Positions 8,866-56,428 of a stretch of DNA of 64,000 nt are shown here, piece after piece. A model generated the notes under the pieces. It was not told where the DNA came from. It was given only the letters and a program-made list of their open reading frames with translations, and did no database searches. The DNA is taken from positions 558,001-622,000 of the forward strand of contig NC_086385.1 in assembly GCF_036588685.1 (NCBI RefSeq), given 5' to 3'. Origin of the DNA: Mytilus trossulus. Lineage: Eukaryota. Made by a program: the position numbers and the translations under genes. Position 1 is the first letter of the stretch, and every line of letters starts with the position of its first letter.

Positions 8866-8921
8866 TCAAATAAATGCAATGACTACAATTTATGATAGTT
8901 ATTAGTTTTTTATGGGTTTTT

Positions 8922-14607: not shown

Positions 14608-15483
14608 ATTGATATTAACAGCCAGTTTATAACGCTATAATCCAAATCATTGATTGTTCGATATTTTTTAATCTATACCAGTGTTAATACAGAAACAGGT
14701 TTTTTATAACGCTATAATCCAAATCTTTAATTGTTCGATACACTTTTAATCTATACCAGTGCTAAGACAGAAACAGCCAGTTTATACCGCTATAATCAAA
14801 ATCTTTGATTGTTCGATTAACATTTAATCTATACCAGTGTTAATACAGGAACATCCAGTTTATAACGCTATAATTCAAATCTTTAATTGTTCGATAAACC
14901 TTTAATCTATGCCAGTGCTAATACAGAAACAGACAGTTAACAACGCTATAATTCAAATCTTTGACTGTTCGATAAACTTTTAATCTATACCAGTGCTAAT
15001 ACAGAAACAGCCAGTTTATAACGCTAAAATCCAACTCTTTGATTGTTTGATATTTTTAAATCTATACCAGTGCTAATATAGAAACAGCCAGTTTATAACG
15101 CTATAATTCAAATCTTTAATTGTTCGATAAACCTTTAATCTATGCCAGTGCTAATACAGAAACAGACAGTTAACAACGCTATAATTCAAATCTTTGACTG
15201 TTCGATAAACTTTTAATCTATACCAGTGCTAATTCAGAAACAGCCAGTTTATAACGCTAAAATCCAAATCATTAATATGTAATTGTACGATAAACTTGTT
15301 ATCTATACCAGTGCTAATACAGAAACAGCCAGTTTATAACGCTATAATTCAAATCTTTGTTCGATAAACTTGTAATCTATACCATAGGAACAAATGGAAC
15401 TAATGAATGTGTTTGTCCTGCAGAACCGCCAAGCTACCATTATAGTCGCCTGATCTGTGTTTTACCAATTGTATCATATTTCC

Positions 15484-19325: not shown

Positions 19326-19432
19326 TAATTGTACACCTCGGGATACGGCGTGTCTGGATAAGAAACACCTCCGGCTTCCGGCCGACGGGGTTTATTATCC
19401 AGACACAACTTTATCTCGGTGTTTAACTATTA
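19326..19432. other. ~105-nt foldback inverted repeat (palindromic MITE or hairpin RNA)
   Basis: GTGTCTGGATAA/TTATCCAGACAC, ACACC..CGGGATA/TATCTCGGTGT and CGGC/GCCG arms around a short loop. Confidence 0.75.
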
Positions 19433-20792
19433 CATATAATTTCATGTAATCTACATGCTGTATGAATAAAAGTATACAATACATCTATGTATTACGTGTA
19501 GATTATTAGGTAAGGGATTCGTTACCACACAGTAATTTAAACCTTCAATTATTTTATAGATACAAAGATTTGGGTTGCGATAACCAAACAATTTGGATTT
19601 TAAACCATTTTCCGTGGTTTCGAACAAAAGAACTCGAATAAAACCAAGGGTCAAAACCAAATAACCAAGATGGGACCAAGGTTGAGAACCAGAGAGTCGT
19701 GTAAGAACCTAATTGCATTTTGAATTCTCATGACTTCTTATACCTTAAACGTATTTTCCAAATCATTTATCTATTTAGTATATTTATATATAACTATATT
19801 TGAAACTAAGTTGATACAAACTGATGTGGATTCATCGTCATTCGTAGGATACTTTTTGTTTTGGTGGTTGGCATGGTAATTGATAAAATTGCAAGTTAAC
19901 ACATGCAACGTAGTGTAAATGTACTTAAGATTTTAATCCAGATTTTGGAATACCAATGAAAAGAAAGATCCACTAAATTACACTAGTTACCATTCAACTC
20001 CATCCGAGAAAATAAATTAATCCACAGAAGTTCAAAACTAGCACTTTAATCTACCTTAAATTAAAAGTTTATCAAGTAATATAAACTATGTACTCCGGGT
20101 TTAAACTATAAATTAGCAAATATACATGAAACATTTTACTTCATAATAAACGTGTGTACATCAAGCTAGACGACCACAAACTACTTGAAACAAAACAAAA
20201 TGGCTACATGTTACAAGAACAAACTTAAGGACTAAAGTTACGACTACAATATAGTGCTTGGTCGGACTGATAGTCCATTCATATTTAAATGAGAGCCTTC
20301 TTTAAATGTGTTACTCAAAATATAAGATTGACCATACAAAGGTTACTACTATAACCATGACCCTTAAGTTTAAATTTGAAAGCTTTGAAACCTTACCCAA
20401 TTCACTGGGTTTTAGATAGAGCTTCTTACATCAGTGACTGCCATGTTAAAAAAACCTTCAAAGAACATACATTTTTTTTGTACTTAGCCTAATGTCAAGA
20501 TTATCTTTTTCATGGTTTGGACACACATCAACAACAGACACAGACACGAAGTGATTACTCAATATTTCCAGGGTGCTGTTTACTAAGAGGATAATGTGAT
20601 CAGTTTCACAAAAATATAAAGTTGAGTGTAGGTCATGAACATTATACTAACATGTACAAGCATATGTATTCGTAAGACGTTTCTGAAACTGATCATTGAT
20701 GTTATTTTACATTGATAAATAAAGGCAACTGCGGTGTAACGTTGTTTGAAATTCATGAATCAATTGAGAAAAAAAATACGGGTTACTTATAA

Positions 20793-22107
20793 GTATCCGC
20801 GTCAATGATGAGTCTTATGTATACCAATCGCGCGTCTGGCGTACTAAATTATAATCCTGGTACCTATGATAACTATTTACACCATGGGTCGATGCCACTG
20901 CTGGTGGACGTTTCGTCCCCGAGGGTATCACCAGCCCAGTAGTCAACACTTCGGTGCTGACATGAATATCTATGATGTGGTCATTTTTATAAATTGTCAT
21001 TTTAGATGTGGTCATTTTTATAAATTTCCTGTTTACAAAACTTTGAATTTACCGAAAAACTAAGGATGTTCTTATCCCAGGCATATATTTCCTTAGCCGT
21101 ATTTGGCACAACTTTTTGGAATTCGGGATCCTCAATGCTCTTCAACTTTGAACTTGTTTGGCTTCATAAATATTTTGATATGAGCGTCACTGATGAGTCT
21201 TATGTATTTCTGGTACCTTTGATAACTATTTCCACCACTGGGTCTATGTCACTGCTGGTGGACTTTTCGTCTCCGAGGGTATCACCAGCCCAGTAGTCAA
21301 CACTTTGGTGTTGACATGAAAACAATAATGATGTCACTTTTATAAATTTCCTGTTTACAAAACCTTGAGTTAACCAAAAAAATAAGGATTGTCTTATCCC
21401 ATGCATATATTACCTTAGCCGTTTTTAGCAAATTGTTTATGAATTTTGGATCCTCAATGCTCTTCAACTTTGTATTTGTTTGGCTTTATAGATATTTTGA
21501 TATGAGCGTCAATGATGAGTTTTCTGAAGTCAAAACGCGCGTCTGCCGTACTGAATTATAATCCTGGTACATTTGATAACTATTTACACCACTGGGTCGA
21601 GGCCACAGCTGGTGGACGTTTCGTCCCCGAGGGTATCACCAGCCCAGGAGTCAACACTTCGGTGTTGACATGAATATCAATAATGTGGTCATTTTAATAA
21701 ATTTCCTGTTTACAAAACTTTGAATTTATCGAAAAACTTAGGATTTTCTTATCCCAGGCATATATTACCTTATCCGTTTTTGGCACAATTTTGGGGAATT
21801 TGGGATCCTGAATGCTCTTCAACTTTGTACTTTTCTTGCTTTATAAATATCTTAATATGAGGGTCACTGATGAGTCTTATGAAGACGAAAGAGGGACGAA
21901 AGATACCAAAGGGACAGTCAAACTCATAAATCTAAAACAAACAGACAAAGCCATGGCTAAAAATGAAAAAGACAAACAGAAAAACAATAGTACACATGAC
22001 ACAACATAGAAAACTAAAGAATAAACAACACGGACCCCACCAAAAACTAGGAGTGATATCAGGTGTTCTGGCGTATTCAATTACAATCCTGGTACCTTTG
22101 ATAATTA
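20793..22107 (+). mobile_element. Older, degenerate retrozyme array (~3 units)
   Basis: Same ~350-bp unit with damaged hammerheads at ~20799, 21184, 21506 and 21860. TTATAA on both flanks may be a TSD. Confidence 0.85.
21888..22067 (-). mobile_element. 5'-truncated PLE 3'-end fragment inserted into a hammerhead
   Basis: Reverse complement of ~53855-54034. It separates ...GACGAAA from TCTGGCGT. Confidence 0.85.
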
Positions 22108-25702: not shown

Positions 25703-27721
25703 TTACCAATTAAGCAGGACGTTATCCTTTTCTGTCATCGTTATTTGATCATTTGTACGGCTTTGTCCTGGTTGTTTTATCGTATTCATGTCTACATCAT
25801 GTGTACGGCTTTGTCCTGGTTGCTCTATCGTATTCATGTCTGCCTCATGTGTACGGCTGTTTACTGGTTGTTCCGTCGTATTCATCGCTACCTCATGTGT
25901 ACGGCTTTGTCCTGGTTGTTCTATCGTATTCATCTGTAGCTCATGTGTACGAATGTTTCCTTGTTGTTCTATCGCATTCATCTCTACCTCATGTGTACGG
26001 CTTTGTCCTGCTTGTTCTATCGTATTCATCGCTACCTCATGTGTTCGGCTTTTTCCTAGTTGTTCCATCGTATTCATCTCTACCTCATGCGTATGGTTTT
26101 GTCCTGGTTGTTCTATCGTATTCATCTGCACCTCATGTGTTTGGCTTTTTCCTGGTTGTTCTATCGTATTCATCTCTACCTCCTGTGAACGGCTTTGTCC
26201 TTGTTGTTCTATCGTATTCATCTCTACCTCATGTGTACGGCTTTGTCCTAGTTGTTCTATCGTATTCATCTCTACCTCAAATGTTCGGCTTTTTTCTAGT
26301 TGTTCCATTGTTATCATCTCTACCTCATGTTTACGGCTGTTTCCTGGTTGTTCCATCATACTCATCTGTACCTCATGTGAACGGCTTTGGCCTGGTTGTT
26401 CTAACGTAATCATCTCTACCTCATGTGTACGGCTTTCTCCTGGTTGTTTTATCATATTCATCTGTATCTCATTTGCCCTGATTTTTCCTGATTTTTCCGT
26501 TGTTGTCATCGCTTTTCTGTCTGTTGGCTGTGTTCTATTATGTGGAGTTTTCCTTATTTGGTGAATTTGATCCTTGAGTGTACAGTGGGTAATTATTTTT
26601 TTTAGGAACAAAACGATTTCTTTTCTCATTTTTGTTGACATCATAATGTAGATGATAAAATTTGACATACACCCAATAATTGTAAAAAGTTTTAAACCTT
26701 CCATAAGCCAAGTAACGATGTAATAGTACGAAATATAATCGGCATAACTAGACAATCCAGGTGTCCATAAAAAATAACCCAAAAGTCCGGCCATCTCTTG
26801 CTCGTACCTTGTTATCACCCAAATTTTATCTATGGTTGAAATATCATTCATCACCTTATTAAAATGATTAAAACACCACAATAAGAACACAATTACTTTT
26901 GGAACTTCTGTAATGAAGAAAACAATAAGAACTGCAATGATCATTGCAACTGATCTTCTTTCTTGTTTCCTTTGTTCTGTCATCCGACCCCTGAACTTGT
27001 TAGTGATTAACTTGTAGACGATGAATATTGTAGATATCAGCATGACCAGACAACAGCTTGTCAAAAGAACGGTTTGCATCAGGAGATATGTAACAGAGGA
27101 GTATTCTAATATATTGTCACCTCCAGAATGAACAAAACAAGAAACTGTGCCATCTTGATGCTTGTATTTCTCAGACCAAATGCTAAAATGTCGTGGAATA
27201 CCTATTGCTATGGACAATACGAAGCACATAGCACAACAGGTTACGGCTTTTTGTTTTGTCATCTCATTTTTAGTCCAAACGGGAAAGAGAATGGCTATGA
27301 CTTTTTGTATTCCGAGACATGTTGTGAGCATTGTTGATACATTGTGAAATGTGAATGATGCTATAGAGAGATGATGATTAATAGAACAATACGGATATGG
27401 TAAATAACAATTGTAAGTTTCAATGTCAATGTCAATGACAAATTCACAAACATATTGTGACTGGAATATTGGTTCCAGCCCATAACATGAAAGCGCCGTT
27501 AATATATCAGCTACTGCTAAACCCTTCATAACCATTGTAGCAGGTGAACGCAAATTTTTACGACTGAGAATAACAAATATGATGATGTTCATTATCATAG
27601 AAAAATATGATATAACAGAACCAGCACGGTACATACCAAGTAAATACTTGTCCAAGTCAACACTAAAAGTATCAACATACATGTAGATATAAAAATTAAT
27701 ACTATCATTATGACCAAGCAT
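25703..27721 (-). CDS. Intronless class A GPCR (FMRFamide/sex-peptide/myosuppressin receptor-like, Srw-type) with repeat tail, paralogue 1, 672 aa
   Basis: Seven hydrophobic segments: TM1 N + LSRKNLRSP, TM2 LAVAD, TM3 C...LGIQKVIAILFP, TM6 FFITEVP and TM7 NFIIY. Confidence 0.9.
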   Translation of the reverse strand: MLGHNDSINFYIYMYVDTFSVDLDKYLLGMYRAGSVISYFSMIMNIIIFVILSRKNLRSPATMVMKGLAVADILTALSCYGLEPIFQSQYVCEFVIDIDIETYNCYLPYPYCSINHHLSIASFTFHNVSTMLTTCLGIQKVIAILFPVWTKNEMTKQKAVTCCAMCFVLSIAIGIPRHFSIWSEKYKHQDGTVSCFVHSGGDNILEYSSVTYLLMQTVLLTSCCLVMLISTIFIVYKLITNKFRGRMTEQRKQERRSVAMIIAVLIVFFITEVPKVIVFLLWCFNHFNKVMNDISTIDKIWVITRYEQEMAGLLGYFLWTPGLSSYADYISYYYIVTWLMEGLKLFTIIGCMSNFIIYIMMSTKMRKEIVLFLKKIITHCTLKDQIHQIRKTPHNRTQPTDRKAMTTTEKSGKIRANEIQMNMIKQPGESRTHEVEMITLEQPGQSRSHEVQMSMMEQPGNSRKHEVEMITMEQLEKSRTFEVEMNTIEQLGQSRTHEVEMNTIEQQGQSRSQEVEMNTIEQPGKSQTHEVQMNTIEQPGQNHTHEVEMNTMEQLGKSRTHEVAMNTIEQAGQSRTHEVEMNAIEQQGNIRTHELQMNTIEQPGQSRTHEVAMNTTEQPVNSRTHEADMNTIEQPGQSRTHDVDMNTIKQPGQSRTNDQITMTEKDNVLLNW
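25742..26509 (-). repeat. Coding 48-bp minisatellite, 16 x 16-aa (MNTIEQPGQSRTHEVE)
   Basis: Counted directly in the translation; the frame is conserved throughout. Confidence 0.95.
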
Positions 27722-30253
27722 TATTTATATTGGCTGATATTGATTTTAAATACGAATACTCATCGTATTTTCGCAACGCACTCCTGATAGCTTAATCAAC
27801 TATCTTATATCAAAAAGTGAAAAGGTAAATACTTTATCCTAATGTCCGAATGATCATATTTCCATGACGATATAAATCACATGGACAACAAACGAAACTG
27901 TGTCATCCTAGTCTAATTTAGTCATCATTTGTCTGGACGGAAACTGCTGGTTTAAGTGAACGGAAAATATACAGCTTAATATTGCATTTAGTCCCCTCTA
28001 AATTAAAAAAAAATCACACACAAGATAGACGTGTATATATCAAATGTGGTTATTTTACTTGTTTTTAATACCATTAATGACATGTTTATCTTATTGAGAT
28101 CACTAAACGCCACATTGCATCATAATACTAACCATTATTATTGATATATATGACAACGTATTTGTCCTTTTGTAAAATAACAATAGTTCACCCATGGGTA
28201 AATGAAAATGACACTTTGTTAATTTCATTTATTCGAAGCACTTTCCTGACTTTCGACAGGAATGCTTAAACCAAAACATATTGAAAGTCGGGGATGTAGA
28301 AAACCTAAATGTAGATCATGTTACCAAGATGGTAAATCAAGAATAAAATTCGTCCATTGATTTTAACATGAAATATCAATTGATGTTCATTAAAATGACG
28401 GTATACCGTCAAACAAACAGGAAACAACAATTCCAAAATTGCCTAGATGATAAAAATGCTATGACCATGACTTCGGTCATCCGACAGTGAGGTCATTCGA
28501 TTCGATGAGCAGAAAATCGAGAACGGAAATGGGGAATGTGAAAAAGCTCTTGGAGCATACACTACAAAAGTCTAAAGGTCTGAAAAGACCAGTTTTTGTC
28601 TTAATTTGCATAAACTTTTACTTGACATTCTTAAAAAGTATGACTCGTGTTTTAATTTTTCTTGACAATTCTAATTAATATAAAATTTGTATGAAATTTA
28701 CTCGACATATTCTCGACATGCTGATTATGGTCTAAAATTTCTTAACTCATTTCTGACATTTGAATACTGTCTTGAAATTCCTCTACATATTCTGGACATT
28801 CTTTTTTTCTCAGTATGGCTTGACAAATTTTTAACATTTTAAATTGTGTCTTAAATTTACTTGACAATTCTGAGTTTTATAAATCATTACCAATATTCAT
28901 GATATAAGTTTAATCTTCATTTCTATTTCTATTATATACTGTTATTCAACGTTACACTTCTTACAACAACAAACTAGAGGCTCTTAAGTTTACGCATGCG
29001 CCAAAAAGATATGGCAGTGAAAATTTTCAGGCTAAAATTTATAGTGATATTTGGATTTGTATAATGGTTATCAGTGATGCCACGCAGTAAAAAGAGTTCT
29101 CGAAATAGAGCCCAAAAGTATTTTAGTGATTCTGCATCGTCGGATGAACGACATTTTTGTGATAAAAGATTTTGTACACAAGCAAAAGACAAGGTACATT
29201 TAAATAATAGTGAACACAATTCAAGTACAAGTACTAGTAAAGGCAATAACATAAATAACGACATGTATAGTTCTATTCAATACACACCTATGGCTGGTAC
29301 GCCGAATATGAACTATCCACAAAACTTTTCGTCTTTTCCACTACAATCTATACCCCCTAAATACCACCTTCGATTTCACCTAGCATTGAAATGTCCCTGA
29401 ACGATTTTTGCAAGAAAATGTCAAAAGTAGAAATGAAATTAACAAAATTAGATCGAATTGAGGAGCGTTTAGAAACCATGGATAAGCAATTTAAGTATGT
29501 AGATTCTAAAGTATGTGCCTGTAAACAGAGACTCAATACGCTCGAACCAAGCGCCCAATTCCTATCGAATGTACATAATGAATGTGCAATAATATTAAAA
29601 GGACGCATAGATACCCTCATAAGTAGTATTGAATCAATAAAAAGCTTATATAACAAGGTCCTAGACATTGAATCGCAAAGTTTAGAACATAACTTCTTAT
29701 ATTTCTCAATTGACGAAGAACCCATTGAAGAAAAAACAGAGAAAATAAAGTAGCCGATAGTTAGGAGTCTGGTCGTGTGATAGGGGGTCACTACGAGATA
29801 ATGAAAACTGTATGGAAAACATTTTGAAATTTTTGGAGAAGGAAATGAAATTTGAAGATGCAAAAAAAATTAAAATGAAAAAGGGTTAGATAAACCGAGG
29901 CCAAAAGTGGTGAAATTTAGGAGCTTGTCTTATAGGTCAAAAGTGAAAAGTGCATCGAGAAGATTAAAGGACTCGAAATTTGGTATAAGCCCTCAATACC
30001 CTCGTGAAATAGTCGAACGAAGGAGAAAACTTGACCCTATAATGTTAAAAGAGCGAAAAAAGAAGAAAACGGCCTATATTGTAGGTGACAAATTGTACGT
30101 TAACGGAGAATTGTGGAAAGGATAGGAAAAAGCAGAGTGTGATGAAAATGTGCCTGATTTACGGAAAGATGTTATTAGTATCTGTTCTTGAATTATTTCT
30201 AAAAGTTTAGTTTGAAAATTTTCTGATCCAGAGTTTCTACAAATAGTGCCTAA

Positions 30254-30806: not shown

Positions 30807-31355
30807 TTAAATATGATGTGTTGTGTTTTTATGAATGTTGGGTCAAGTGCCCAGATCAGTTTGAAATAAATGGTTATAGTAAAAAAACATCTCTCTAGAG
30901 CAAAGTGCAATGGCGGGGTATAGTGTTATTCTATAAGAAATGGCTGAATCAATATATTGATATAATAAAATGTGAAGCAGATTGTATGATTTGGTTTAAA
31001 TTTGATAAATGTATTATGCCAAATAGCAAAAAATTATATATATATATATATGCAATTTATATGCCTCCAGATAAAAAGGTGTATTATGAAAAATATGATA
31101 TAGACTTTTTTTATGTATTCCAAGAACAAATCAAACATTTCTCAGACATAGGGACAGTTGCAGTGATAGGCGACCTAAACGGGAGAATTGGAAGAGATAA
31201 AGACTTTATTGAAGGTGATATTCTGAATAAACAATTAATCGATAACATACAGTTTGTTGATTATATAAGTGACAATTGTCTCCCAGATAGAATTACAGAA
31301 GCTTAAAGGCCTCTTATAGTTTCGGGCGTCGAATATTAGAACTGTGTAAATCATC

Positions 31356-32827
31356 TGGCGTACTAAATTATAATCCTGGTACTTTTGATAACTACTTACA
31401 CCACTGGGTCGATGCCACTGCTGATGGACGTTTCGTCCCCGAGGGTATCACCAGCCCAGTAGTCAACACTTCGGTGTTGACATGAATATCAATAATGTGG
31501 TAATTTTTATAAATTTCTTGTATACAAAACTTTAAACCTTTTGAAAAACTAAGGATTTTCTTATCCCAGGCATAGATTACCTTAGCCGTATTTGGCACAA
31601 CTTTTTGGAATTTTAGATCCTCAATGCTCTTCAACTTTGTACTTGTTTGGGTTTATAACTATTTTTGATTTGAGCGTCACTGATGAGTCTTGTGTAGACG
31701 AAACGCGCCTCTGGCGTACTAAATTATAATCCTGGTACTTTTGATAACTATTTACACCACTGGGTCGATGCCACTGCTGGTGGACGTTTCGTCCCCGAGG
31801 GTATCACCAGCCCAGTAGGCAACACTTCGGTGTTGACATGAATATCAATAATGTGGTCATTTTTATAAATTTCTTGTATACAAAACTTTTAACTTTTTGA
31901 AAAACTAAGGATTTTCTTATCCCAGGCATAGATTACCTTAGCCGTATTTGGTTCAACTTTTTGGAATTTTAGATCCTCAATGCTCTTCAACTTTGTACTT
32001 GTTTGGGTTTATAAATATTTTTGATTTGAGCGTCACTGATGAGTCTTATGTAGACGAAAGGCGCGTCTGGCGTACTAAATTATAATCCTGGTACTTTTGA
32101 TAACTATTTACACCACTGGGTCGATGCCACTGCTGGTGGACGTTTCGTCCCCGAGGGTATCACCAGCCCAGTAGTCAACACTTCGGTGTTGACATGAATA
32201 TCAATAATGTGGTCATTTTTATAAATTTCTTGTATACAAAACTTTACACTTTTTGAAAAACTAAGGATTTTCTTATCCCAGGCATAGATTACCTTAGCCG
32301 TATTTGGTTCAACTTTTTGGAATTTTAGATCCTCAATGCTCTTCAACTTTGTACTTGTTTGGGTTTATAAATATTTTTGATTTGAGCGTTACTGATGAGT
32401 CTTATGTAGACGAAAGGCGCGTCTGGCGTACTAAATTATAATCCTGGTACTTTTGATAACTATTGACACCACTTGGTCGATGCCACTGCTGGTGGACGTT
32501 TCTTCCCCGAGGGTATCACCAGCCCAGTAGTCAACACTTCGGTGTGGACATGAATATCAATAATGTGGTCATTTTTATAAATTTCTTGTACTATACAAAA
32601 CTTTACACTTTTTGAAAAACTAAGGATTTTCTTATCCCAGGCATAGATTATAATTACCTTAGCCGTATTTGGCACAACTTTTTGGAATTTTAGATCCTCA
32701 ATGCTCTTCAACTTTGTACTTGTTTGGGTTTATAAATATTTTTGATTTGAGCGTCACTGATGAGTCTTATGTAGACGAAACGCGCGTCTGGCGTACTAAA
32801 TTATAATCCTGGTACTTTTGATAACTA
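31356..32827 (+). mobile_element. Tandem non-LTR retrozyme array, 4 x ~356 bp plus ~40 bp
   Basis: Hammerheads at 31674-31717, 32030-32073, 32386-32429 and 32751-32794 (spacing 356, 356, 365). Removing the array restores the LINE reading frame. Confidence 0.93.
32751..32794 (+). ncRNA. Minimal type I hammerhead ribozyme, intact core
   Basis: GCGTCA CTGATGA GTCT TATGT AGAC GAAA CGCGCG TC TGGCGT. Confidence 0.92.
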
Positions 32828-33865
32828 TTAAGAACTTGTAACGGACGATATGGTGCTGATAGTGGTAAAATTACATTCCTTATATAAAAACGGTTTGATT
32901 GACTATTTATTAATGTCACATGATATAATTTGATTTAACAATTAAGTGTAAAAGATTTTAATACTTACTCTTGTCATGCTCCATTGAATTTTGAAATTCA
33001 CATAAAGGGTTTTAAAATTGTAAATGAAAAATGTACCTGTTCAAAATTTGTATATAATACTGTTAGATGGGATGAAAGGGACAAGGATGACATCATGAGC
33101 GAATTATTGGAAACTTTCTCAAAAGGTTGATGATCTTTTGTTACACTTGACCGAACACGAGAACAAAATTGACGAGTGTGTCAACGAATTAAATAAACTT
33201 TTGATTACAATTTGTGAACAGTATACTAAAGTTGAAGTAAAAAAGTAAACAAATGCGGCTACTGTGTAATATAGCAATTACCAAAAAGCCAGTATTTAAA
33301 CTTAACAGACCATGGATTTCAGAAAACTGAAAACTTTACGTAGACAATATAAATCAGCGTTAAAAGTTTTCAATGAAAAACGTAACAATGAAAACAGAAT
33401 TAAATTGAACATTGCTAAACAGAATTACAAGCAAACAGATATGAGACTCAAGAGACAGTACAAAAACCAACAAATGTTGAATCGGTTGCGTCGAAATAAC
33501 CCCAAAAAGTTTGTCCGGAAATTTAAAAGAACTCGGAATAATCATTCGAATTCTATAACACTGCAACAATTTCAAGCGCATTTTCAAAATTTAGTGTCGG
33601 GAAATACGTATAACGAAAACGAAAGAGTCTATACAAAATGTGTTCGAAGAATTGGACGCCCCATTCACTGAGAATGAACTTAGTTATGGAATACGACAAT
33701 TAAACGAGATAAAAATACTGGATTTGACAACATACTAATCGAATACCTTATTACTGGTAAAGCTGCACAAGTCCTATTTAATAACATTTTAAATACTGGA
33801 AATTTCCTGCAGATGTGGGTTAAAAGCATAATGGTTCCTGTGTTTAAGAAGGGGGATTTGGATGA

Positions 33866-34306
33866 TTTTTTGAAATGTCCACTAACTTTACCGAGTTTGA
33901 ACGAATTACTAATGTGGTATATAGGTTCATATGAACAATATTCGACTTGGTTTCGGCTTTTCATAAGATTGATATAGAGATTATTATTATCAACATATGT
34001 AAACACATTACTGTTATCGCATTCTGAGACTTGTGGATCATCAGGTAAAAATGTCTTTATAGATTGATGGAACGAATTTACTTTCGGTATTTTACATACC
34101 TCTGATTCCACAAGAAAATTGGTGTTGTTGTTGAATTTAGATAACACTTCAAGATTACAACGAGACACGTATTCTTTTTCCCGAAAAGTGTATTCCTTTT
34201 TTGTATTTATTCTTAACGTTGTTCCAATAATGCACACAAAAACACATACACACAAATAAAGAAAAGATTTCTTTCGAACTATACCGAACATACGTTTCGA
34301 ATTCAT
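33866..34306 (-). pseudogene. DUF229 copy B, 5' ~145 codons only, fused to antisense LINE RT
   Basis: Matches copy A up to KVSGHF, then continues into the reverse complement of LINE RT sequence (ORF 33680-34348). Confidence 0.9.
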
Positions 34307-35266
34307 CGTAACATTTATTGTATGTTTTAAGAAATAAACAATAAACATATTAATATTTTATTGGTTAAGTGACTTAGTGAAAATACTATGAATAATATTG
34401 ATCGTCATAAAATCATGTTAATTCGCGTCAAACAAAGTTCAAATTAAAAAAAATAATATTATAGGTGAAAATAAGGTAGCAATAAGTGAAATGTAGCAGG
34501 TTGCCTTTAAATGCTGTGATTTTAGCATTTCTTAATAATAACCGGAAATCTGTTTTTACCTCTCAAACCATTAAGTGTAAGAAATTTGTTTTCGTATGCT
34601 TTAATTAAACTTTGTTTTATTATCAATATGAAAAAGAAATATTTGATAAACATTTAATTACTTCAATGCAAATTACTTAGAAGCCAATAACTGAACACTT
34701 TATTGCATTTAGCACCTAACCACTATTAAACGGACAGCCCCTGCACTTACACCTATCATAAAGATGCTATTGAAGGTTAATTATCAAATGAAAATTTGCA
34801 CGGTTGACCATTCGTTTTCATCGAAGTATGAACTGGTATTTAACGTTCAGAAGACAAAACTGAGTCTATCAGGGTTAGAACATTTAAAATGTGATAGTAA
34901 TATGCATCTACTAAGACCGAAAGGATGAGTCGTATTCAATAGGTGTAAATGTACAAGATATCAATCTATAAGAGAGACCTCTTACCAAGACACACGGGCT
35001 CAGAACTGATCGGTCTCTGTTTTTGTCTTACATGCCGCGTCCTAAACAAAATAGGCGCAATTACCAGTTTATTAAACAAGAAATTAGAAATCTCCTCAAT
35101 ATTGACAAATCATGCATGTATCGTGAACGTGAACAAGGAGTTCAAATAGGTTTCCTATTCATGCTTAAAAAAATTTGTTATGCACTGGATGCTTCTGGAA
35201 TAGCCATGGTTTCATGTATTGGCTGTCGAACTTAGAGTTTCAAGGCCAATACAACTAATCTCGAAT

Positions 35267-37818: not shown

Positions 37819-39122
37819 AGCAGGAGGAGCTTTCCCCGTTGCCGCATTCATCCTCTCCCCTTTTGCAGTTCATGTGATCCCCTTAGTTTTTATTACCTTG
37901 ACTTGTCTCTTTCATTCGATTTACGAGATTTGAACATTGTTAACTTCGTCGCTTTAATTCAAGTACCGTACTATATGACCACAAACTATTTACGAGTATA
38001 TGTACATACAGACACATTCCTGGTTTTGGAATGTCTTTCGTTTACAACCCCTCTCCCGTTCAAGAGACATTACAATATGATGTCATGTTATATACATGCT
38101 GTATGAATAACAGTATACTTTACTGGTAAATTATAAGTCCGGGATTTCGTTACCTCACATAATTTTAAACCTTCAATTATTTTATAGATATGAAGATTTG
38201 GTTTGAAAGTGTGGCTGTTCATGTCAGACAAATTATTTCAAACGGGAAAGTACATCCTAATTCTAACGGAGAGATTGTTTACCAAGCCAAGCAATGAAGA
38301 TACGTTTCGGGCTAACTTATCGATCCTGTAAATAAACGTTTTTTATAAAATGTTATCAACTCCATACTGTACTTAGATTTTTGAATTTTGTTTTATTGAT
38401 ATAGATATAAATTTGTTATGAGTAAATTAAAACCAAACTAAATATTATTGTTATATACATAAGTACATTCACGGTTCACGGTTCATATTGGCATTGCATA
38501 AGGTCGTATTTTTCTATGACTGCTTATGACATTTTTACATTTAACCCTATTGATGTTGGATAAGTACTGATTTCAGTCTTAGATTTTAGTACATGTCTAA
38601 ACAGTTTATAATAATATTAACGTTAAGATAAATTAGTGATCTGGTCCAGTTTGAAAAGGTCATAAATTATGATGTGTCCCAAAATTAATACACTACACTG
38701 TAAAAATATTTTTTGAATCCAACAGGTGCTAATTTTGGTTAAAATATTTTTGTTGTTTTCTTTTATAGATAAATTCACTACGTCATAACTGTTTTCTCGG
38801 ACCTTTATTTGTTTCATGTCTGCCTTGTTATATTACGTCACTTTTTTGTCGGGCTGTTCAATATAGTTTTTATAAGAATTCCTCGACTGTTTTATAAATT
38901 GTTTATATATTCCGTTATTGTAACTCTTAATTCAATGTTATGACTTTCGGCCTCATTTTACCTTCTCATAACCCTTTAAATAATCATGATTTTACGAAAT
39001 GGAAAGAAAACACTAAACACCAATCCTTCAAGAATATTCACGTGCTCTAAAAACCTTACTCCAAATATAAATTCAACCGCCGTCAATCGAAATTCCCCAT
39101 CTAAAGCAGTTTTAATAATTGA

Positions 39123-39430
39123 GTTAAAGGTGGCAATGCCTCTACAGACAGATTATTAAATAAAAATGTACGTGGATATCCACAAATATTTCCGTGCAAT
39201 GCCAGAAAATGACAAACCTGTTCTAGATTATCTTCTAATAATACTATAAGGTCAACAGTGAACGGGAGAGCTTTTTCGCTTTCCTTTTCCTGTGACATAA
39301 CATAGAAAACCCAAAGTCTCATTTATCTGGTTACATGAACATACCCAAAGTGTGGTATACAATATGTAGAACAAACAGGTTGGAAGTTTTTTTAAACGAA
39401 CACAGGAACATCTATACCGCTTCCGAAAAC
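39123..39430 (+). mobile_element. Penelope-like element GIY-YIG endonuclease fragment with upstream Cys cluster
   Basis: Manual translation from 39195: CNARK*QTCSRLSSNNTIRSTVNGRAF...CDIT*KTQSLIYLVT*TYPKCGIQYVEQTG, then after a +1 shift KRTQEH. This fits the PLE CxxxxCxxC...IYxxxC..CGxQYVGxT...R..EH pattern. Confidence 0.8.
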
Positions 39431-40017
39431 CTTAAAACTACTTAAAAACAATGGTAGATATCCATTATTATGTTAACTGGGTCAAATACCCATAAGTAAA
39501 TTACACGATCTTTTCAAAGAGTGTGACACCAGATGTTTTTAGCCCACTGTATGAAATGACACAAGTTTAATTGTCTTTAATAATAAATTTCTAGAAAAAT
39601 CACACGTACACGATGTAAACAAATTACCGAGATGGCGCGATACTGTCGCCGTCTATGTAAAAATCGCGATTGTCGCCCTTGATTTTATGGCCGTTATGTC
39701 ATATGGAAGGAGGCGCAGAACTGATCCGTGGCTTTCCCACTGTAAGAGTGATGAAATTATCAATAATTTAAAGTGCATAATTTCTTTGAAAAATCTATTT
39801 CCCAGATATAAGTAACATAATGCCAACTTTAAAAAAAAAGTAATTCAAAAACTACATTTGACTACCTGTATCATGTTAACTTGTATGTTGATCTATCGTA
39901 TTTGTATTTGCAAACACAAAGACCTTAACTAGTCGTTAAAGGCTCACTGGTAATTTAGAAGTTGAAGTCATTATAATTATCGATTTCGGTTTTTTGCTTT
40001 ATACTAGCCTCAATTTT

Positions 40018-40243
40018 AACACGACGTTGCCACTTGTGGAGAAGGATTTCCTTACCCTGCCGGAGCAATTGTGATCATAAGAAGTTGTTTGTGGGGTTGG
40101 TGTTGCTTAGTCTTTAGTTTTCTATGTTGTATTTTTTTGTATTATTATTTGTCTGTTTGTCTTTTTATTTTTACGCCATGGCGTTGTCAGTTTATCCTCG
40201 TTCTACGAGTTTGAGACTGTTAATTTCGGTATATTTCGCCCAT
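40018..40243 (+). mobile_element. PLE 3'-end (SINE-like) fragment, diverged
   Basis: Aligns to 53803-54034. Further copies lie at 40963-41120 and 52948-53165. Confidence 0.75.
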
Positions 40244-41755
40244 CTCATGAAGCGAAATTAAGACATCCTTATATATAGTTTTTTTGTATTCATCTTCGTT
40301 CAGTGTTTAATGTCGTTGAAATAAAAATGTCATCAACGTATTCAACTTTTTCCTTCATGGTTTAATCAAATGAAAAAAGGGCGCATAAATGTTTTTGACA
40401 TTAATCTATAAATGATACGTTTATGAAGGACACTTTTTCTTAAATCAATTTATTCATCATTTATTTTAATTGTTCTCAACTCATGTAACTTTACGGATCA
40501 ACATTTCAATGGCGGATATCTAAAAAAACACCAAAAACGAAGTCGGTAAGTTTCACCGATTATAGAATCAATGTGTCAATTTTTAATACCATTCTTTACA
40601 TGTATATCTTGGTGAGATCACTAAATGCCACATTTCAACATAATACCAACCACTAGTATTATTGTATATGACAACTAATTTGTCCTTTTGTAACGCAACA
40701 ATAGTTTACCCATGGGTAAATGAAAATGACACTTGGTTAATTTCGTTTATCAGAAGCACTTTCTTACTTTCGACAGGAACGCTTAAATCAAAACATATTG
40801 AAAGTCGGGGATGTAGAAAATCTAGATGTAGATCATGTAACCAAAAATGGTATAAATCTAGAGCAAAGCTCGTCTATTGATTTTACCATGAAATATCCAT
40901 TGCTGTTCATTAACATTATGTCATACCAGTAAGCAAACAGGAAACAACAATTCCTTAATTTGTCATGTTTGGGTTCGTGTTGTTAATTCTTTAGTTTTCA
41001 ATGTTGTATCATGTGTACTATTGTTTGTCTGTTTGTCTTTTTAATTTTTTAGCCATGGTGTTGTCAGTTTGTTTTAGATTTATTAGTTAAACTGTTCCTT
41101 TGGTATTTGTTGTCTCTCTTGTGTAACTCTATACCATAGACCTTCTGAAAATACTTGCACGTTAAGTCTAACTCGTTTTTTCTGTAGCCAAGCGACCCAA
41201 GCTCCTAACCGTGCATTGCTATCACAGTGGCGGGTATCGGTGGTGGATTCGGGATTTGAGTAACCTCAAGAAAAATAAATGAAAACGGAACGAATGAATT
41301 AAATGAAAGGATGTTATATTTATTGTATTTATTGATTTATTTTTTAAATCTATATGATGGTTTAAATTTGTCTAGTTTCATAATGAAAATAATTAAAATG
41401 AAGATGAATACCGTACAGCATTCATGATGGTCATTGTCAATAGAGTGTATATATATTTGTCGTTTGTTTGAAACGCCTTTCAATATACAATATATTGTTT
41501 TTGCTTCTTATTAAGAACCATTATATGTTCAAATGAATGTGTTAAGTAAAAACGTAAATATTTTAAAAGCTTGATGTTTAAAGGTACATAAAAGTCACAG
41601 CCAAACTCATTTACCCGAATTTTCAACGTGGAATTATAACATAAACAAACTTCATATCGGGACATATTAATAAGTAATGAACAAAATTACGAATTAAAGG
41701 ATACTAAATGTATAAATTTACCAATAAAGCAGAACGTTATCCTTTTCTGTTATCG

Positions 41756-43933
41756 TTACTTTCTCATTTGTACGGCTTTGTCTGGTTGTTCTATCGTATT
41801 CATGTCTACATCATGAGTTTGACTTTGTCCTGGGTGTTCTATCGTATTCATGTCTACATCATGAGTATGAATTTGTCCTGCGTGTTCTATCGCATTCATG
41901 TCTACCTCATATGTACGGCTTTGTCCTGCGTGCTCTATCGTATTTATCTCTACTTCATGTGTACGGCTTTGTCCTGGTTGTTCTATCGTAGTCATCTGTA
42001 CCTCATGTGTACGGATGTTTCCTGGTTGTTCAATCGTATTCATCTCTACCTCATGTGGACGGCTTTGTCCTGGTTGTTCTAACGTTTTCATCTCTACTTC
42101 GTGTGTACGGCTTTGTCCTGGGTGTTCCATCGTATTCATCTCTACCTCATGTGTACGGCTTTGTCCCGGTTGTTTTGAGGTATCCATCACTACCTCATGT
42201 GTACGGCTTTGTCCTGCTTGTTCTAACGTATTCATATCTATCTCGTGTGTACGGCTTTTTCCTGGTTGTTCTATCGTATTCATCTCTTCCTCATGTGTAC
42301 GGCTTTGTCCTGGTTGTTCCATCGTATTCATCTCTTCCTCATGTGTACGGCTTTGTCCTAGTTGTTCCATCGTATTCATCTCTTCCTCATGTGTACGGCT
42401 TTGTCCTGGTTGTTCCATCGTATTTATCTCTTCCTCATGTGTACGGCTTTGTCCTGGTTGTTCTATCGTATTCATCTCTTCCTCATGTGTACGGCTTTGT
42501 CCTGGTTGTTCCATCGTATTCATCTGTACCTCATGTGTACGGCTTTGTCCTGGTTGTTTTAACGTATTCATCACATCCTCATATGTTCGGCTTTTTCCTA
42601 GTTGTTCCATTGTATTCATCTGTACCACATGTTTACGGCTGTTTCCTGGTTGTTCCATCATACTCATCTGTACCTCATGTGTACGGCTTTGTCCTTGTTG
42701 TTCCATCATATTCATCACTATCTCATTTGCCCTGATTTTCCCTGATTTTTCCGTTGTTGTCATCGCTGTCCTGTCTGTTGGCTGTGTTCTACCATGTGGA
42801 TTTTTCCTTTTTTGGTGAATTTGATCCTTGAGTGTACAGTGGGTAATTATTTCTTTTAGGAGCAAAACGATTTCTTTCCTCATTTTTGTTGACATCATAA
42901 TGTAGATGATAAAATTTGACATACACCCAATAATTGTAAAAAGTTTTATACCTTCCATAAACCAAGTAGCGATGTTAAAGTAGTAAACAAATTCGCTATT
43001 TATTATATTTGGATATAAGAAATAAGTCAAACGTCCTGCCATCTGTTGCTCGAAGCTGTGTATCACCCATTTGCTATTACTGGTTAAAACATTATCCCCG
43101 GGGTTATTAAAATGATATAAACACCAACATACGAACACAATTACTTTTGGAACTTCTGTAATGAAGAACACAATAAGAACTGCAATGATCATTGCAACTG
43201 ATCTTCTTTCTTGACTTCTTTGTTCTGTCATCCGACCCCTGAACTTGTTAGTGATTAACTTGTAGACGATGAATATTGTAGATATCAGCATGACCAGACA
43301 ACAGCTTGTCAAAAGAACGGTTTGCATCAGGAGATATGTTACAGAGGAGTATTCTAATATATTGTCACCTCCGGCATTAACAATACAAATGTCTGTGCCA
43401 TCGTGATACTTGTATTTCTCAGACCAAATGCTGAAATGTCGTGGAATACCTATTGCTATGGACAATACGAAGCACATAGCACAACATGTTACGGCTTTTT
43501 GTTTTGTCAGCTCATTTTTAGTCCAAACGGGAAAGAGAATGGCTATGACTTTCTGTATCCCGAGACATGTTGTGAGCATTGTTGATACATTGTGGAATGT
43601 GAAGGATATTATAGAGAGATGAGGAGAAATAGAACAATACGGATATGGTAAATAACACGTGTAAGCTTCAAAGTCATAGTAAACTTCCAAATTACAAACA
43701 TATTGTGACTGAAATATTAGTTGTAACCCATAACATGAAATCGCCGTTAATATATCAGCTGCTGCTAAACCCTGCAGAAGTATTGTAGCAGGTGAACGCA
43801 AATTTTTACGACAGAGAATAACAAATATGATGATGTTCATTAGCATTGAAACATAGGATATAACAGAACTAGCACGGAACATACCCAGTAAATATTTGTC
43901 CAAGTCAACAAAAAAATTATCTAAACCACTCAT
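41756..43933 (-). CDS. Intronless class A GPCR with repeat tail, paralogue 2, 725 aa
   Basis: Same 7TM motifs as paralogue 1. The tail has 20 full 16-aa repeats plus a frameshifted 21st. Confidence 0.9.
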   Translation of the reverse strand: MSGLDNFFVDLDKYLLGMFRASSVISYVSMLMNIIIFVILCRKNLRSPATILLQGLAAADILTAISCYGLQLIFQSQYVCNLEVYYDFEAYTCYLPYPYCSISPHLSIISFTFHNVSTMLTTCLGIQKVIAILFPVWTKNELTKQKAVTCCAMCFVLSIAIGIPRHFSIWSEKYKYHDGTDICIVNAGGDNILEYSSVTYLLMQTVLLTSCCLVMLISTIFIVYKLITNKFRGRMTEQRSQERRSVAMIIAVLIVFFITEVPKVIVFVCWCLYHFNNPGDNVLTSNSKWVIHSFEQQMAGRLTYFLYPNIINSEFVYYFNIATWFMEGIKLFTIIGCMSNFIIYIMMSTKMRKEIVLLLKEIITHCTLKDQIHQKRKNPHGRTQPTDRTAMTTTEKSGKIRANEIVMNMMEQQGQSRTHEVQMSMMEQPGNSRKHVVQMNTMEQLGKSRTYEDVMNTLKQPGQSRTHEVQMNTMEQPGQSRTHEEEMNTIEQPGQSRTHEEEINTMEQPGQSRTHEEEMNTMEQLGQSRTHEEEMNTMEQPGQSRTHEEEMNTIEQPGKSRTHEIDMNTLEQAGQSRTHEVVMDTSKQPGQSRTHEVEMNTMEHPGQSRTHEVEMKTLEQPGQSRPHEVEMNTIEQPGNIRTHEVQMTTIEQPGQSRTHEVEINTIEHAGQSRTYEVDMNAIEHAGQIHTHDVDMNTIEHPGQSQTHDVDMNTIEQPDKAVQMRK
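41757..42763 (-). repeat. Coding 48-bp minisatellite, ~21 units
   Basis: Counted in the translation. Confidence 0.95.
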
Positions 43934-45339
43934 TATTATATTGGCTGATATTGATTTTAAATACGAATACTCATCGAATTTTCGATACGCACATCTGAAA
44001 GCTTTATCAACTATCTTATAACAAAAGTGAAAAGGTAAATACGTTATCCTAATGTCCTAATGATCCTATTTCCATGACGATATAAATCCCATGGACAACA
44101 AACGATACTGTGTCATCGGAGTCTAATTTAGTCATCATTTGTTTGGACGGAAACTGTTGTTTTGAGTGAACGGAAGATATACAGCTCAATATTGTATTTA
44201 GTCCCCTTTATATCAAACTCTAAACTTAAAACATCTCAAACACAGATAGATGTGTATATATCAAATGTTGTTATTTTACTTGTTTTTAATACCATTAATG
44301 ACATGTTTATCTTATTGAGATCACTAAATGCCACATTGCATCATAATACCAACCATTAATATTAATGTATATGACAACGTATTTGTCCTTTTGTAAAATA
44401 GCAATAGTTCACCCATGGGTAAATGAAAATAACACTTTGTTAATTTCGTTTATCCGAAGCACTTTTCTGATTTTGTTTTCGACAGGAACGCTTAAACCAA
44501 AACATATTGAAAGCCGGGGGATGTAGAAAACCTAGATGTAGATATTGTTACCAAGATGGTATAAATCAAGAGCAAAATTCGTCCATTGATTATAACATGA
44601 AATATCAATTGCTGTTCATTAACATAACGGTTTACCGTCAAACAAACAGTAAACAACAATTCCAAAAATGCCTAGATAATAGAAATACTATGACCTTGAC
44701 TTCGGTCATCCGACAGTAAGGTCATTCGATATGATGAGCAGGAAATTGAGAATGGGAATGAGGAATGTGTCAAATAGACAACAACCCGACCATAGAAAAA
44801 AACAACAGCAGAAGGTCACCAACAGCTCTGCAATGTAACGAGAAATTCCCGCACACTAGATTGTACATAGTTTTTGTAGTAAATAGATACTATTCTAGAG
44901 ATTTCAGTATAGTCTGCTTAATATTCATAATATATCTTGGTACTTTTTGCAATCTAATTTTGAAAAATTATTTTTACTATGTACATACCGTTATTTAGAG
45001 GGAAACAATTCTGAAAAGTTTCGTCAATGTATATCTTACGCTTCAGTTCGGATACTCTCTGTAAAGTCAAACTAATGAAGTTTAGTCAAGGTCAATGATG
45101 TACATAACTTACTATATATTTATGAATGGTTCAATTAACTTCAGAAACAACTCCGTGATTGTAACATAATATATCCATTGCTCTGCATTCCCTTGAAGTC
45201 ATAAAGATATACAAATACGAACACCTATACCAAATGTATCATCAAGGTAATATAAAAACCTGATTACTTTCGTTTGAAATTAAAAGATGCTGCAGACGAG
45301 TGTCCATGTTGCCTAATGTATGTAATTCAACATTTAGTT

Positions 45340-53164: not shown

Positions 53165-54783
53165 ATATTAATATTAACCTGCTGTGAACTTGACTGACAA
53201 AAACATGAGGCCAAGAACTTGTTAATTTGATATGATTATAAATATGATCTGTACTACACTGTCATACACACGAGGACGAGATCATGTTAATTTGCTATGA
53301 ATATGAACCTGCTCTGAACTAGACTGACATACAAATAAAGACGAGAACATGTTAATTTGAATGAATATGAATCTACTCTGTACTAGACCGACATACACAT
53401 GAGGATGAGATCATGTTAATTTGATATGTATATTAACATCCTCTAAATTGGACTGACATACACATAAAGACGGGATCATGTTAATTTGATATGAATATGA
53501 ACCTGCTCTGTATTAGACCGACATACAAATGAGGACGAGATTATGTTAATTCAAATCATGATTTTCTTGATAGAGGGTTACTGCTCACAAGGAAGCTATT
53601 AAACCAATAGTTCCAAATGGTGAAGTTGAAATCATCCCTTCGTAAATTTTACGGACGCCATCACGAGTTGGTTGACCGTTATGGAATAACCGTTTCACAA
53701 ATGATATCGGATATGTTCCTTACGTCGTAACTACAATCCCCTTCCCTTTCATGAATTTGACCTACCGAATTAGACTATTTACCGGATTTGTAATCGCATA
53801 AGCAACACGACGGGTGCCGCATGTGGAGCAGGATCTGCTGACCTTTCCGGAGCAGCACCTGAGATCACCCCTAGTTTTTGGTGGGGTTCGTGTTGTTTAT
53901 TCTTTAGTTTTCTATGTTGTGTCATGTGTACTATTGTTTTTCTGTTTGTCTTGTTCATTTTTAGACATGGCGTTGTCAGTTTGTTTTAGATTTACGAGTT
54001 TGACTGTCCCTTTGGTATCTTTCGTCCCTCTTTCAATTTGATATGAATATGAACCTGCTCTGTACTACACTGACATGCACATAAAGACGAGAACATGTTA
54101 AATTGATATTAATATAAACCTGCACTGAAAATGAATGGCATACACATAAGGATGATATCATGTTAATTTGAAATGAATATTAACCTCCTCTGAACTAGAC
54201 TGACATACACATAAAGACGAGAACATGTTAAATTGATATTAATATAAACCTGCACTGAAAATGAATGGCATACACATAAGGATGATATCATGTTAATTTG
54301 AAATGAATATTAACCTCCTCTGAACTAGACTGACATACACATAAAGACGAGAACATGTTAAATTGATATTAATATAAACCTGCACTGAAAATGAATGGCA
54401 TACACATAAGGATGATATCATGTTAATTTGAAATGAATATTAACCTCCTCTGAACTAGACTGACATACACATAAAGACGAGAACATTTTAAATTGATATT
54501 AATATAAACCTGCACTGAAAATGAATGGCATACACATAAGGATGATATCATGTTAATTTGAAATGAATATTAACCTCCTCTGAACTAGACTGACATACAC
54601 ATAAAGACGGGAACATGTGAATTTTATATGAATATGAACCTGCTATGTACTAGACTGAGACACACATGGGGACGAGGTCATGTTAATTTGATATTAATAT
54701 TAACCTCCTCTGAACTAGACTGACATACACATAAAGACTAGAACATATTAATTTGATATTGATATTAACCTGCTCTGAACTAT
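53165..54783. repeat. 65-bp minisatellite downstream of DUF229 copy C, with a 130-bp dimer repeated ~4x
   Basis: Same family as 8445-8865. Identical dimers start at 54091, 54221, 54351 and 54481. Confidence 0.93.
53551..54034 (+). mobile_element. 5'-truncated Penelope-like element: RT C-terminus and 3' UTR
   Basis: Translates HDFLDRGLLLTRKLLNQ*FQMVKLKSSLRKFYGRHHELVDRYGITVSQM, homologous to the end of the RT at 61143-61330. It is inserted in the 65-bp array. Confidence 0.8.
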
Positions 54784-54839: not shown

Positions 54840-56428
54840 TTATAAACGGAAATTACATGCACACCACTTAAACGGAATATGAGCATCTTGACATGATCTT
54901 TTCCTCGGAATTTCCTTGAAAAGGGAGATACCTTTTTGACGATAGGTTTTTATTCCATGGTGATTGTTGTCAAGATCAAGAAGATGCAATAGAGTAGAAT
55001 GAGTGTCAAAATGTGTCGTAAGTCTTCCAACATTTGTTCGTAAATTCTTAAAATAGCTACAATATTTTGTTTTGAACCAAGGCGGAACATACATGAACAT
55101 CATTGGGAGTCTCTCCTCTAATTGGCCAATAAAGGTTGGTCTAACTTAACCATATCTTATACCGTGATCCCCGAACAGTGCGAGGAATGTGTTGTTCAGT
55201 AAACTATTTTTGTGTAGTCTTTGAAGTGTCTTAGAAGTTAGTCTGTAAATAGTTTGAGCACGGGTTAGACTATCATGAGTCATATCATATGACTCATATG
55301 TATATGCTACGACAATGAGAAATACGGATTGTCTTTTAAGTTTGACACCATATTAAACATTGTTTCGTTGACGGATTCAGATGACGATTTTCCATGCTAG
55401 CAAAGTCTCGTTAACTTTCGGTTACCCTTTTCATTTGCGTCATGGAAAGGTTGATAATAATAATCTGTTGGTTGGTATTTGAAGCCAGACATGTCCTTTG
55501 AGTAAAATGTGCATACTGCATCCTGTCCATAGTGAGTTGTATAGCCAAATTTTGAAAACTCTTTCCAAATAAATGGACATTTATCAACTCCTTCTGAATC
55601 TTTAAAGCACGAGGATTTTTCTATAAAATCTCCAGTCAACAAAGCTGCTGTGTTTGGTCTAGTATTAAACGCCACTTTGTTATGTCCAAGTAGTTCAGTT
55701 GCGTTTAATGTTTCCAACAAATACTCTCTAGTCTTGCGTAAATATCGAACAGAATTAATTCTTGAAGTCGACTCTATCATTATGAGTAGCACATTTAGAC
55801 GGGTTTCTCGATGATTATCCATATTCGGTATATTTTTCACTTGTACGACATGTTTTCGTAAGTCAGATGCTTTCAGGTTTGGATCGTTTTTTACAAATAC
55901 GGTATGGAAGTTTTTAGCTATCACTTTATTAAAGGTATCATAACATTGAACCTTTATAAATTCGTCTGTAACCCGTACAGATTTATTGAAATGTCCATTA
56001 ACTTTACCGAGTTTGAACAAATTACTGATGTAATATATAGGTTCATATGAACAATATTCGACTTGGTTTCGGCTTTTCGTCAAATTGATATAGAGATTAT
56101 TATTATCAACATATGTAATCACATTACTGTTATCGCATTCTGATACTTGTGGATCATCAGTTAAAAATTCGTTGATAGATTGATCGAACGAAATTACTCC
56201 CGGTATTTTACATACCTCTGATTCCACAAGAAAATCGGTGTTGTTGTTGAATTTAGATAGCACTTCAAGATTACATTGTGACACGTTTTCCATTTCAAAA
56301 GAGTATGCCGTTTTTGTATTTATCTTCAAACGATGTACTTAATGTATTAGGAACGAAATGTACACACACACACCTACACACAAATAAAGAACCGTTTTCT
56401 TTCCAAAACAACTGAACAGACTTATCAT
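54840..56428 (-). pseudogene. DUF229 copy C, multiply disrupted
   Basis: Stop after the signal-anchor (~56340), TAG at 55397-55399, and a small duplication/frameshift at ~55281-55300. The N-terminus and upstream region are divergent. Confidence 0.9.

Follow-up and report, generated by a model that had tools for sequence, protein, structure and literature searches.

SECIS-directed decoding of UGA as selenocysteine (Sec) is an established mechanism of eukaryotic cells. Among transposons, Sec-encoding elements were previously known from four families reported in one paper (Craig et al. 2021, PMC8557442), namely four Naiad Penelope-like elements (PLEs) of clams and spiders, in which Sec is a prediction. 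As that paper describes them, all four families carry UGA at the Cys in front of the GIY-YIG motif (pre-GIY) and eight residues after the DKA motif (DKA+8), and their SECIS elements are located 1-21 nt behind the end of the open reading frame (ORF) (PMC8557442). In the literature library that we searched, no other paper on Sec-encoding PLEs was listed.

Here we analyse a relic of such an element in a 64-kb stretch of DNA (hereafter the window, with positions counted from its first letter). The family represented by this relic resembles the clam elements Naiad_Scon (Sinonovacula constricta) and Naiad_Mmer (Mercenaria mercenaria), as these are presented in PMC8557442, in several respects: i) the GIY-YIG endonuclease is N-terminal, ii) UGA occupies, as compared by eye, both the pre-GIY cysteine and the first cysteine of the CCHH motif, iii) the endonucleases align by eye column for column, with the same four-residue CCHH spacing, and iv) the inferred ORF end is followed by a SECIS-like element with a similar core. 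On the other hand, the window family has a shorter, unrelated N-terminus, a likely third Sec at the second zinc-finger cysteine, where both clam elements have Cys, and a SECIS-like element that follows the inferred end of the ORF at a distance of about 80-100 nt, as against the 1-21 nt published (PMC8557442). It also falls into a sub-clade separate from clam-like proteins, in a tree from which the published sequences themselves are absent. The spider elements Naiad_Sdum and Naiad_Smim (Stegodyphus) share UGA at the pre-GIY cysteine, but their CCHH Cys is kept and U is found at the first zinc-finger cysteine; Naiad_Sdum is the only published family with U at the second one as well (PMC8557442). 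Because the spider elements are described in that paper as an independent origin, a Sec shared at this position would be a convergence. As for the published Mytilus elements Naiad_Mgal and Naiad_Mcor, which come from what is probably the host group here, these are described in PMC8557442 without UGA or SECIS, with a zinc finger longer by five amino acids and in another subclade, and they are not the window family.

The relic comprises the following features:

38113..38418 (+): decayed C-terminus of a Naiad reverse-transcriptase (RT) ORF, from a 5'-truncated upstream unit (pseudo-LTR); frameshift-aware alignment
38518..38578 (+): decayed SECIS-like element (AUGA core, AA, UGAU); Rfam SECIS_1 21.4 bits, about 80-100 nt past the inferred ORF end
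38579..38985 (+): untranslated spacer from SECIS to start codon (3' UTR of the upstream unit and/or leader of the next); by position
38986..39432 (+): N-terminal GIY-YIG endonuclease from its start codon on, disrupted by frameshifts and stops; alignment to P0003, L004 and L001
39210..39212 (+): TGA at the second Cys of a CX4CxxC zinc-finger-like motif, likely a family-level Sec codon; sequence and variant rows
39303..39305 (+): TAG here, TGA in the family, at the Cys column just before the GIY-YIG motif; read depth and L001
39336..39338 (+): TGA at the first Cys of the CCHH motif, family-level; L001 and variant rows
39433..39441 (+): junction where about 355 nt have been lost internally (remainder of the endonuclease plus the KR-rich block); comparison with L001
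39442..39555 (+): piece of the Naiad linker between endonuclease and RT; 88% identity to L001 545-663

We identify the fragment as a GIY-YIG endonuclease from the N-terminus of a Naiad PLE. The window family possesses both the CX2-5CxxC motif upstream of GIY-YIG and the CCHH motif, and the Pfam GIY-YIG profile matched 31 of 42 aligned homologues; the same profile gave no match for the window fragment, P0001, P0003 or the L004 domain. Weak profile matches were obtained to T4 endonuclease II (E 0.008) and I-TevI (E 0.03), and the L004 domain, modelled with a pLDDT of 90, had I-TevI as its top, likewise weak, fold match (E 0.02). In tblastn searches, the endonuclease matched protein P0003 with E 1e-28 and the intact ORF of L004 with E 7e-12. 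In Neptune and Nematis PLEs, an endonuclease with the same zinc finger is located at the C-terminus, behind the RT in the same ORF. In L001, an independent copy of the window family (83-88% DNA identity to the window copy; 83% over 233 columns of the endonuclease), the endonuclease runs into a KR-rich block and further into the Naiad linker, and relatives continue to the DKA motif and RT. From this, the endonuclease is N-terminal, and the element is therefore a Naiad and not a Neptune. A Neptune-type arrangement was rejected also on account of the fragment's own start, about 75 codons before the finger, and the Naiad linker behind the endonuclease. The KR-rich block, which lies between endonuclease and RT, is deleted in the window copy, while the linker piece at 39442-39555 matched P0124-P0128 and P0143 in tblastn.

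The TGA codons at 39210-39212 and 39336-39338 and the TAG at 39303-39305 are located in a single + strand frame, the two TGAs standing within the motifs C-X4-(TGA)-xx-C (39195-39221) and (TGA)-X4-C (39336-39353, with an R/H helix next); the second His region of the CCHH motif was seen in L001. The original prediction of TGA at two cysteine positions of a PLE GIY-YIG fragment was thus borne out, with the motifs as it quoted them. It also named the TAG as the only other stop of the fragment; the TAG is present, but a TAA at 39393, caused by a frameshift within a T-run, lies in the same frame too, and the endonuclease reading resumes in the next frame from 39394. The start codon at 38986 aligns with Met1 of P0003 and precedes the first UGA by about 75 codons. 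Three additional in-frame stops between them and upstream of the motifs (TAA at 39048, TAA at 39102 and TGA at 39120) indicate that the copy is decayed. Furthermore, about 355 nt (L001 190-544) were deleted internally, with loose ends at 39432/39442, and homology to the element stops at 39555 (loose ends 39551/39555). The window copy is dead. Beyond it, a high-copy repeat (39551-39700+) is joined to the relic by a 5-nt microhomology; the region 39551-39900 is repetitive and matched the element neither in protein nor in DNA. The chance that two of five Cys codons mutated into TGA was calculated as 0.7-1.7% (10-20% divergence, equal rates). Taken from the window copy alone, the TGA pattern is suggestive and indecisive, so that other copies and related families have to decide.

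To other copies of the family we had access through contigs of four public runs (X1, X2, X4 and X15, among 24), which were aligned to 38900-39700 at 80% likeness; 511, 242, 318 and 16 contigs were aligned, respectively. These runs represent three coded organisms and one RNA library (X15), whose contigs may be DNA and are not evidence of expression. The public runs found contain at most 0.32 of the words, and the mean depth was 540-18000 in the three DNA runs. At the TAG, G at 39304 and A at 39305 accounted for 5289 and 5559 of 6216 in X1, 573 and 573 of 599 in X2, 704 and 769 of 866 in X4, and 13.9 of 13.9 in X15, i.e. for 81-100% of depth across the four runs. As G and A are in the majority in every run, the TAG is a decayed TGA, and not a decayed TGG as had been proposed. 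L001, read directly, has TGA at both the pre-GIY and the CCHH columns. Neither 39210-39212 nor 39336-39338 appeared among the 40 variants listed of 218, each of which had another letter at at least 54% of depth in some run (the rule of their ranking is unstated). The in-frame TGA at 39120 did appear among them, being TGT in 84-100% of depth, and shows, as an internal control, how a nonsense change private to one copy looks in these data. Judging from the codons read in these copies, TGA at the 39303 and 39336 columns is a family-level state. All family copies seen (the window copy, L001, P0058 and P0104) are decayed, internal deletions are frequent among the public-run contigs, and none of the family members recovered is full-length. 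A search with the family peptide pattern found one metagenome contig and no genome contig.

The position 39210 calls for more caution. L001 begins downstream of this codon, and no second DNA copy of it was present among the copies recovered. At the corresponding column, the true homologues with the two best scores, P0003 and P0004, both have W, as they do at the remaining two columns; P0058, a copy of the same family, has L. Together with the absence of 39210 from the listed variants, this makes a family-level Sec codon likely here, as read from the sequences compared. As an alternative, the family might be a Sec-Naiad in which only 39303 and 39336 are family-level, TGA at 39210 being a later nonsense change in part of the copies. 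In agreement with this, a single DNA copy of the codon was seen, and Cys is found at the column in 111 of 116 protein hits, including the close relatives P0007 and P0020, as well as in L004 and, according to PMC8557442, in both clam families. The behaviour of 39210, so different from that of the copy-specific TGA at 39120, and the residues in P0003, P0004 and P0058 argue against it, and we consider this alternative rather improbable, yet serious. On the question of whether other copies read TGT or TGC, which the original prediction had raised, TGA is thus kept at 39303 and 39336, while 39210 is answered only indirectly.

Next to the endonuclease, we found traces of the other end of a Naiad. 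The segment 38113-38418 scored 110 and 120 against the last 125 amino acids of P0143/P0145 in a frameshift-aware alignment, compared with a mean of 30 and a maximum of 43 for 48 control stretches of the window. Its score fell from 110 with P0143 to 54 with L004, and three Cys-type Naiads gave 31-40. Behind it, at 38518-38578 (+), lies the SECIS_1 match mentioned above, below the Rfam gathering score of 35, and in the right place and with the right core; at the gathering score, Rfam found nothing in the window. Exactly two SECIS_1 matches were present in the whole 64 kb (scanned in three parts), the second one being at 8100-8162 (-) with 31.8 bits (E 4e-4), and each of them lies behind the C-terminus of a Naiad RT in the same orientation. 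The element at 38518-38578 aligns with that at 8100-8162 and with those of L004 and L007. In the Rfam register, helix II is 85% paired, with seven of ten pairs changed on both sides, as against 28-53% when slid (four sequences from three families). The segment 38518-38578 folds no better than its shuffles (z -0.7). A simple SECIS pattern scan, giving 19 rows, was not used as support, since it is unspecific and misses 38518. A downstream SECIS at 39551-39600 was rejected for its lack of a fold (z +1.0) and of an Rfam match, and also because 39551-39900 does not match the element. While no SECIS had been seen originally, a decayed SECIS-like element is thus present, upstream of the endonuclease in pseudo-LTR position. 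No hammerhead was found at E<=10 in 37900-40600, where the copy is decayed.

The order on one strand, i.e. RT end, SECIS, about 400 nt, ATG and endonuclease, is that of a Naiad partial tandem; the equivalent spacer from SECIS to ATG in L004 is about 620 nt. As no full-length family member is available, the link between 38113-38578 and the endonuclease rests on adjacency and on shared sublineage, from which we infer that both come from the same family. Should 38113-38578 instead belong to a different Naiad family that merely adjoins the endonuclease, this would agree with the existence of a second SECIS-bearing Naiad family in the window, and with the fact that no contig was seen spanning both parts, reads having been aligned from 38900 only (contigs of other copies, aligned to 38900-39700, join 38900-38985 to the endonuclease). 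Strand, order and spacing are nevertheless those of the L004 tandem array, and the best match of the RT end is P0143, which groups with L001 in one sub-clade. A neighbour from a different Naiad family is therefore improbable, somewhat more so than the loss of family status for 39210.

Intact relatives were found in the family L002-L010. Its DNA was obtained, as that of one W-bearing family, by a pattern with free third codon base, and the W of the protein records was confirmed to be TGA in DNA. These copies are located on two contigs (C448 and C653) of G001, a record filed as a bacterial metagenome-assembled genome (MAG), where they form head-to-tail tandem arrays of intact ORFs of about 1050 amino acids encoding endonuclease and RT. 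Each ORF contains five in-frame TGAs, at the pre-GIY, CCHH, linker, CxC and DKA+8 positions; the pre-GIY TGA is present in L002-L010 and the CCHH TGA in all copies printed from L003-L010. A SECIS_1 match of 42-43 bits follows each array ORF (8 hits). The arrays resemble the window family in TGA at pre-GIY and CCHH, in a SECIS (in the window, a SECIS-like element) at the ORF end and in tandem layout; unlike the window copy, they are intact, have Cys at the second zinc-finger position and carry the further TGAs at linker, CxC and DKA+8. As far as we searched, they are unpublished. G001 also holds many PLEs with C-terminal endonuclease, and for this reason it likely carries animal contigs; the array contigs are presumably host contamination of the bacterial MAG. 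In G001, no DNA copy of the window family was found, and L002-L010 had no DNA match to the window copy.

To place the family more widely, a profile-free HMMER search with the fragment was run against 1.84 billion proteins. It gave 118 hits, from which P0002 and P0034 were dropped as repeat-driven, leaving 116; word-indexed protein searches with the short fragment gave no match, and scans of viral contigs found no relatives. Cys occurs at the three columns in 66-111 of the 116 homologues. In 29 of them the protein ends inside the query span, and these ends pile up exactly at the pre-GIY column (17) and the CCHH column (7), the remaining five being scattered singly over five other columns. W, as produced by gene calls with TGA=W, was found at the pre-GIY column in 26 hits and at the CCHH column in 17, although W in protein records may also be true TGG. 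Altogether, W or a protein end at either Sec column was present in 49 of 116 hits; this is not a count of families, because several hits are decayed copies of the same families. It nonetheless points to a clade much larger than the published one, with members being mis-annotated as broken genes.

In the linker, the closest longer relatives were 57-63% identical and carry CxC and DKA, P0143 and P0145 containing a full RT in addition. Both motifs are present in P0124-P0126, P0128 and P0143, while this region is absent from the window copy and from L001. Of seven relatives, six terminate precisely at DKA+8; Cys is found at this position in P0143, P0145, P0146 and P0138. Sec use therefore appears to vary by site, the P0143 cluster having Cys where most relatives end. 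P0143 and P0145 represent a family within the Sec clade with an open frame of 851 amino acids and Cys at DKA+8, for which site-wise loss or non-gain of Sec is possible, going by the residues found. A tree of 20 rows was computed from the C-terminal half of the endonuclease and the linker only, and L001 fills 41% of its columns. L001 falls into a sub-clade with P0124-P0128 and P0143 (support 99/97), nested in a clade (99/99) that includes the Sec family verified in DNA, and the Cys-type Naiads stand apart. Other copies, domain order and tree thus support the original view of the fragment as a relic of a Sec-bearing Naiad family. The two details in which that view erred, the origin of the TAG and the lack of a SECIS, both strengthen it once corrected.

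The codons themselves, the way they recur across copies, the order of the domains, a pseudo-LTR arrangement and a SECIS-like element behind an RT C-terminus were all observed. From them we conclude with a probability of roughly 85% that the locus holds a dead copy, with an internal deletion, of a multi-copy Naiad family that carries in-frame TGAs in place of two, and likely three, conserved cysteines of its endonuclease and likely recoded them as Sec by means of a SECIS. According to this model, the intact element would have encoded one ORF from the ATG at 38986, giving a protein of endonuclease, linker and RT. The SECIS in its 3' UTR would have recruited the SBP2/eEFSec/Sec-tRNA machinery of the host, so that UGAs were read as Sec, which would replace Cys as a putative zinc ligand. 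Target-primed reverse transcription would have moved the element and left partial tandems, which decayed later. Since the first UGA is only about 75 codons from the start, failed recoding would give neither endonuclease nor RT; without an enzyme, mobility would depend on selenium supply, and we put forward such selenium gating as a hypothesis.

Two further alternatives concern the meaning of the TGAs in the family as a whole, and we rate both as very unlikely. The TGAs might be real stops, fixed by trans amplification of a dead or non-autonomous derivative, as the decay of all family copies seen and the many internal deletions among contigs would allow. The same columns are TGA, however, in intact ORFs with strong SECIS elements and in the families of PMC8557442, and protein ends pile up at both columns across divergent families. 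Alternatively, UGA might be passed by Trp or Cys read-through or by a changed genetic code instead of Sec insertion: gene callers do give W at the TGA columns, and both here and in PMC8557442 Sec is predicted from sequence. Yet the columns are predominantly or often cysteine in homologues, as counted above, SECIS elements follow the ORF, and the host genes found in this stretch read as long open frames in the standard code, which speaks against a changed code. Random nonsense decay of an ordinary Cys-coding PLE, confined to the window copy, would fit its other stops, frameshifts and deletions and the TGT to TGA change at 39120, but it is refuted for 39303 and 39336, where TGA predominates among other copies and is read in L001, and is negligible as an explanation of the locus.

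The principle of Sec-encoding Naiads is not new. The family at this locus probably represents a separate Sec-Naiad sublineage, whose hosts are probably mussels, a group in which the Naiads published so far are of Cys type; Sec-Naiads would thereby occur in a probably new host group, and the three-site Sec pattern is probably new for bivalves. The abundance of SECIS-bearing 3' ends makes the proposed donation of SECIS elements by transposons to host genes testable in the genome. Much more tentatively, and with the odds rather against it, Sec-Naiads might constitute a broad, high-copy bivalve radiation with site-by-site gain and loss of Sec at zinc-ligand positions and with selenium-gated mobility, whose 5'-truncated copies scatter SECIS elements over the genome of the host. 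If so, the third Sec site would have been gained convergently with the spider element, and the scattered SECIS elements (two families in one 64-kb window) would be a ready source of new host selenoproteins.

Several other features of the window were recorded. At 8447-8100 (-) lies the 3' end of a second Naiad family, 54% identical to the C-terminus of P0143 and with its stop near 8216; the window thus contains another SECIS-bearing family, in a better state of preservation. Two other PLE families have left RT pieces at 61800-61150 (-) and 53560-53685 (+), and SECIS_1 had no match behind either. All these PLE pieces (8447-8214, 61800-61150 and 53560-53685) are RT ends, and none is followed by an endonuclease match; originally, two other PLE pieces had been described as lacking a C-terminal endonuclease. 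A paralogous stub at 19429-19577 (+), 77% identical to the RT C-terminus at 38069-38205, sits in a segmental duplicate after a 62-bp tandem array, which suggests that the insertion is older than the segmental duplication.

Tandem units of 355 bp and fragments thereof, which contain hammerhead ribozymes of type I scoring up to 33 bits, are present at 31354-32829 and 21210-21884; they are retrozyme-like and of the size described for Mytilus retrozymes in PMC7229834. Together with the gill and mollusc labels of public runs, these tandems point to a mussel as the probable host. Single hammerhead hits were found at 12034, 12381, 13521 and 14519. Four intronless DUF229/sulfatase-like gene copies, some of them broken, occupy 8922-10526, 33680-34357, 54840-56338 and 62040-63638 (-). 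Finally, two intronless rhodopsin-type GPCR genes are located at 25703-27724 and 41756-44056 (-), each ending in a tail in which a 16-residue unit is repeated 15-20 times in tandem.
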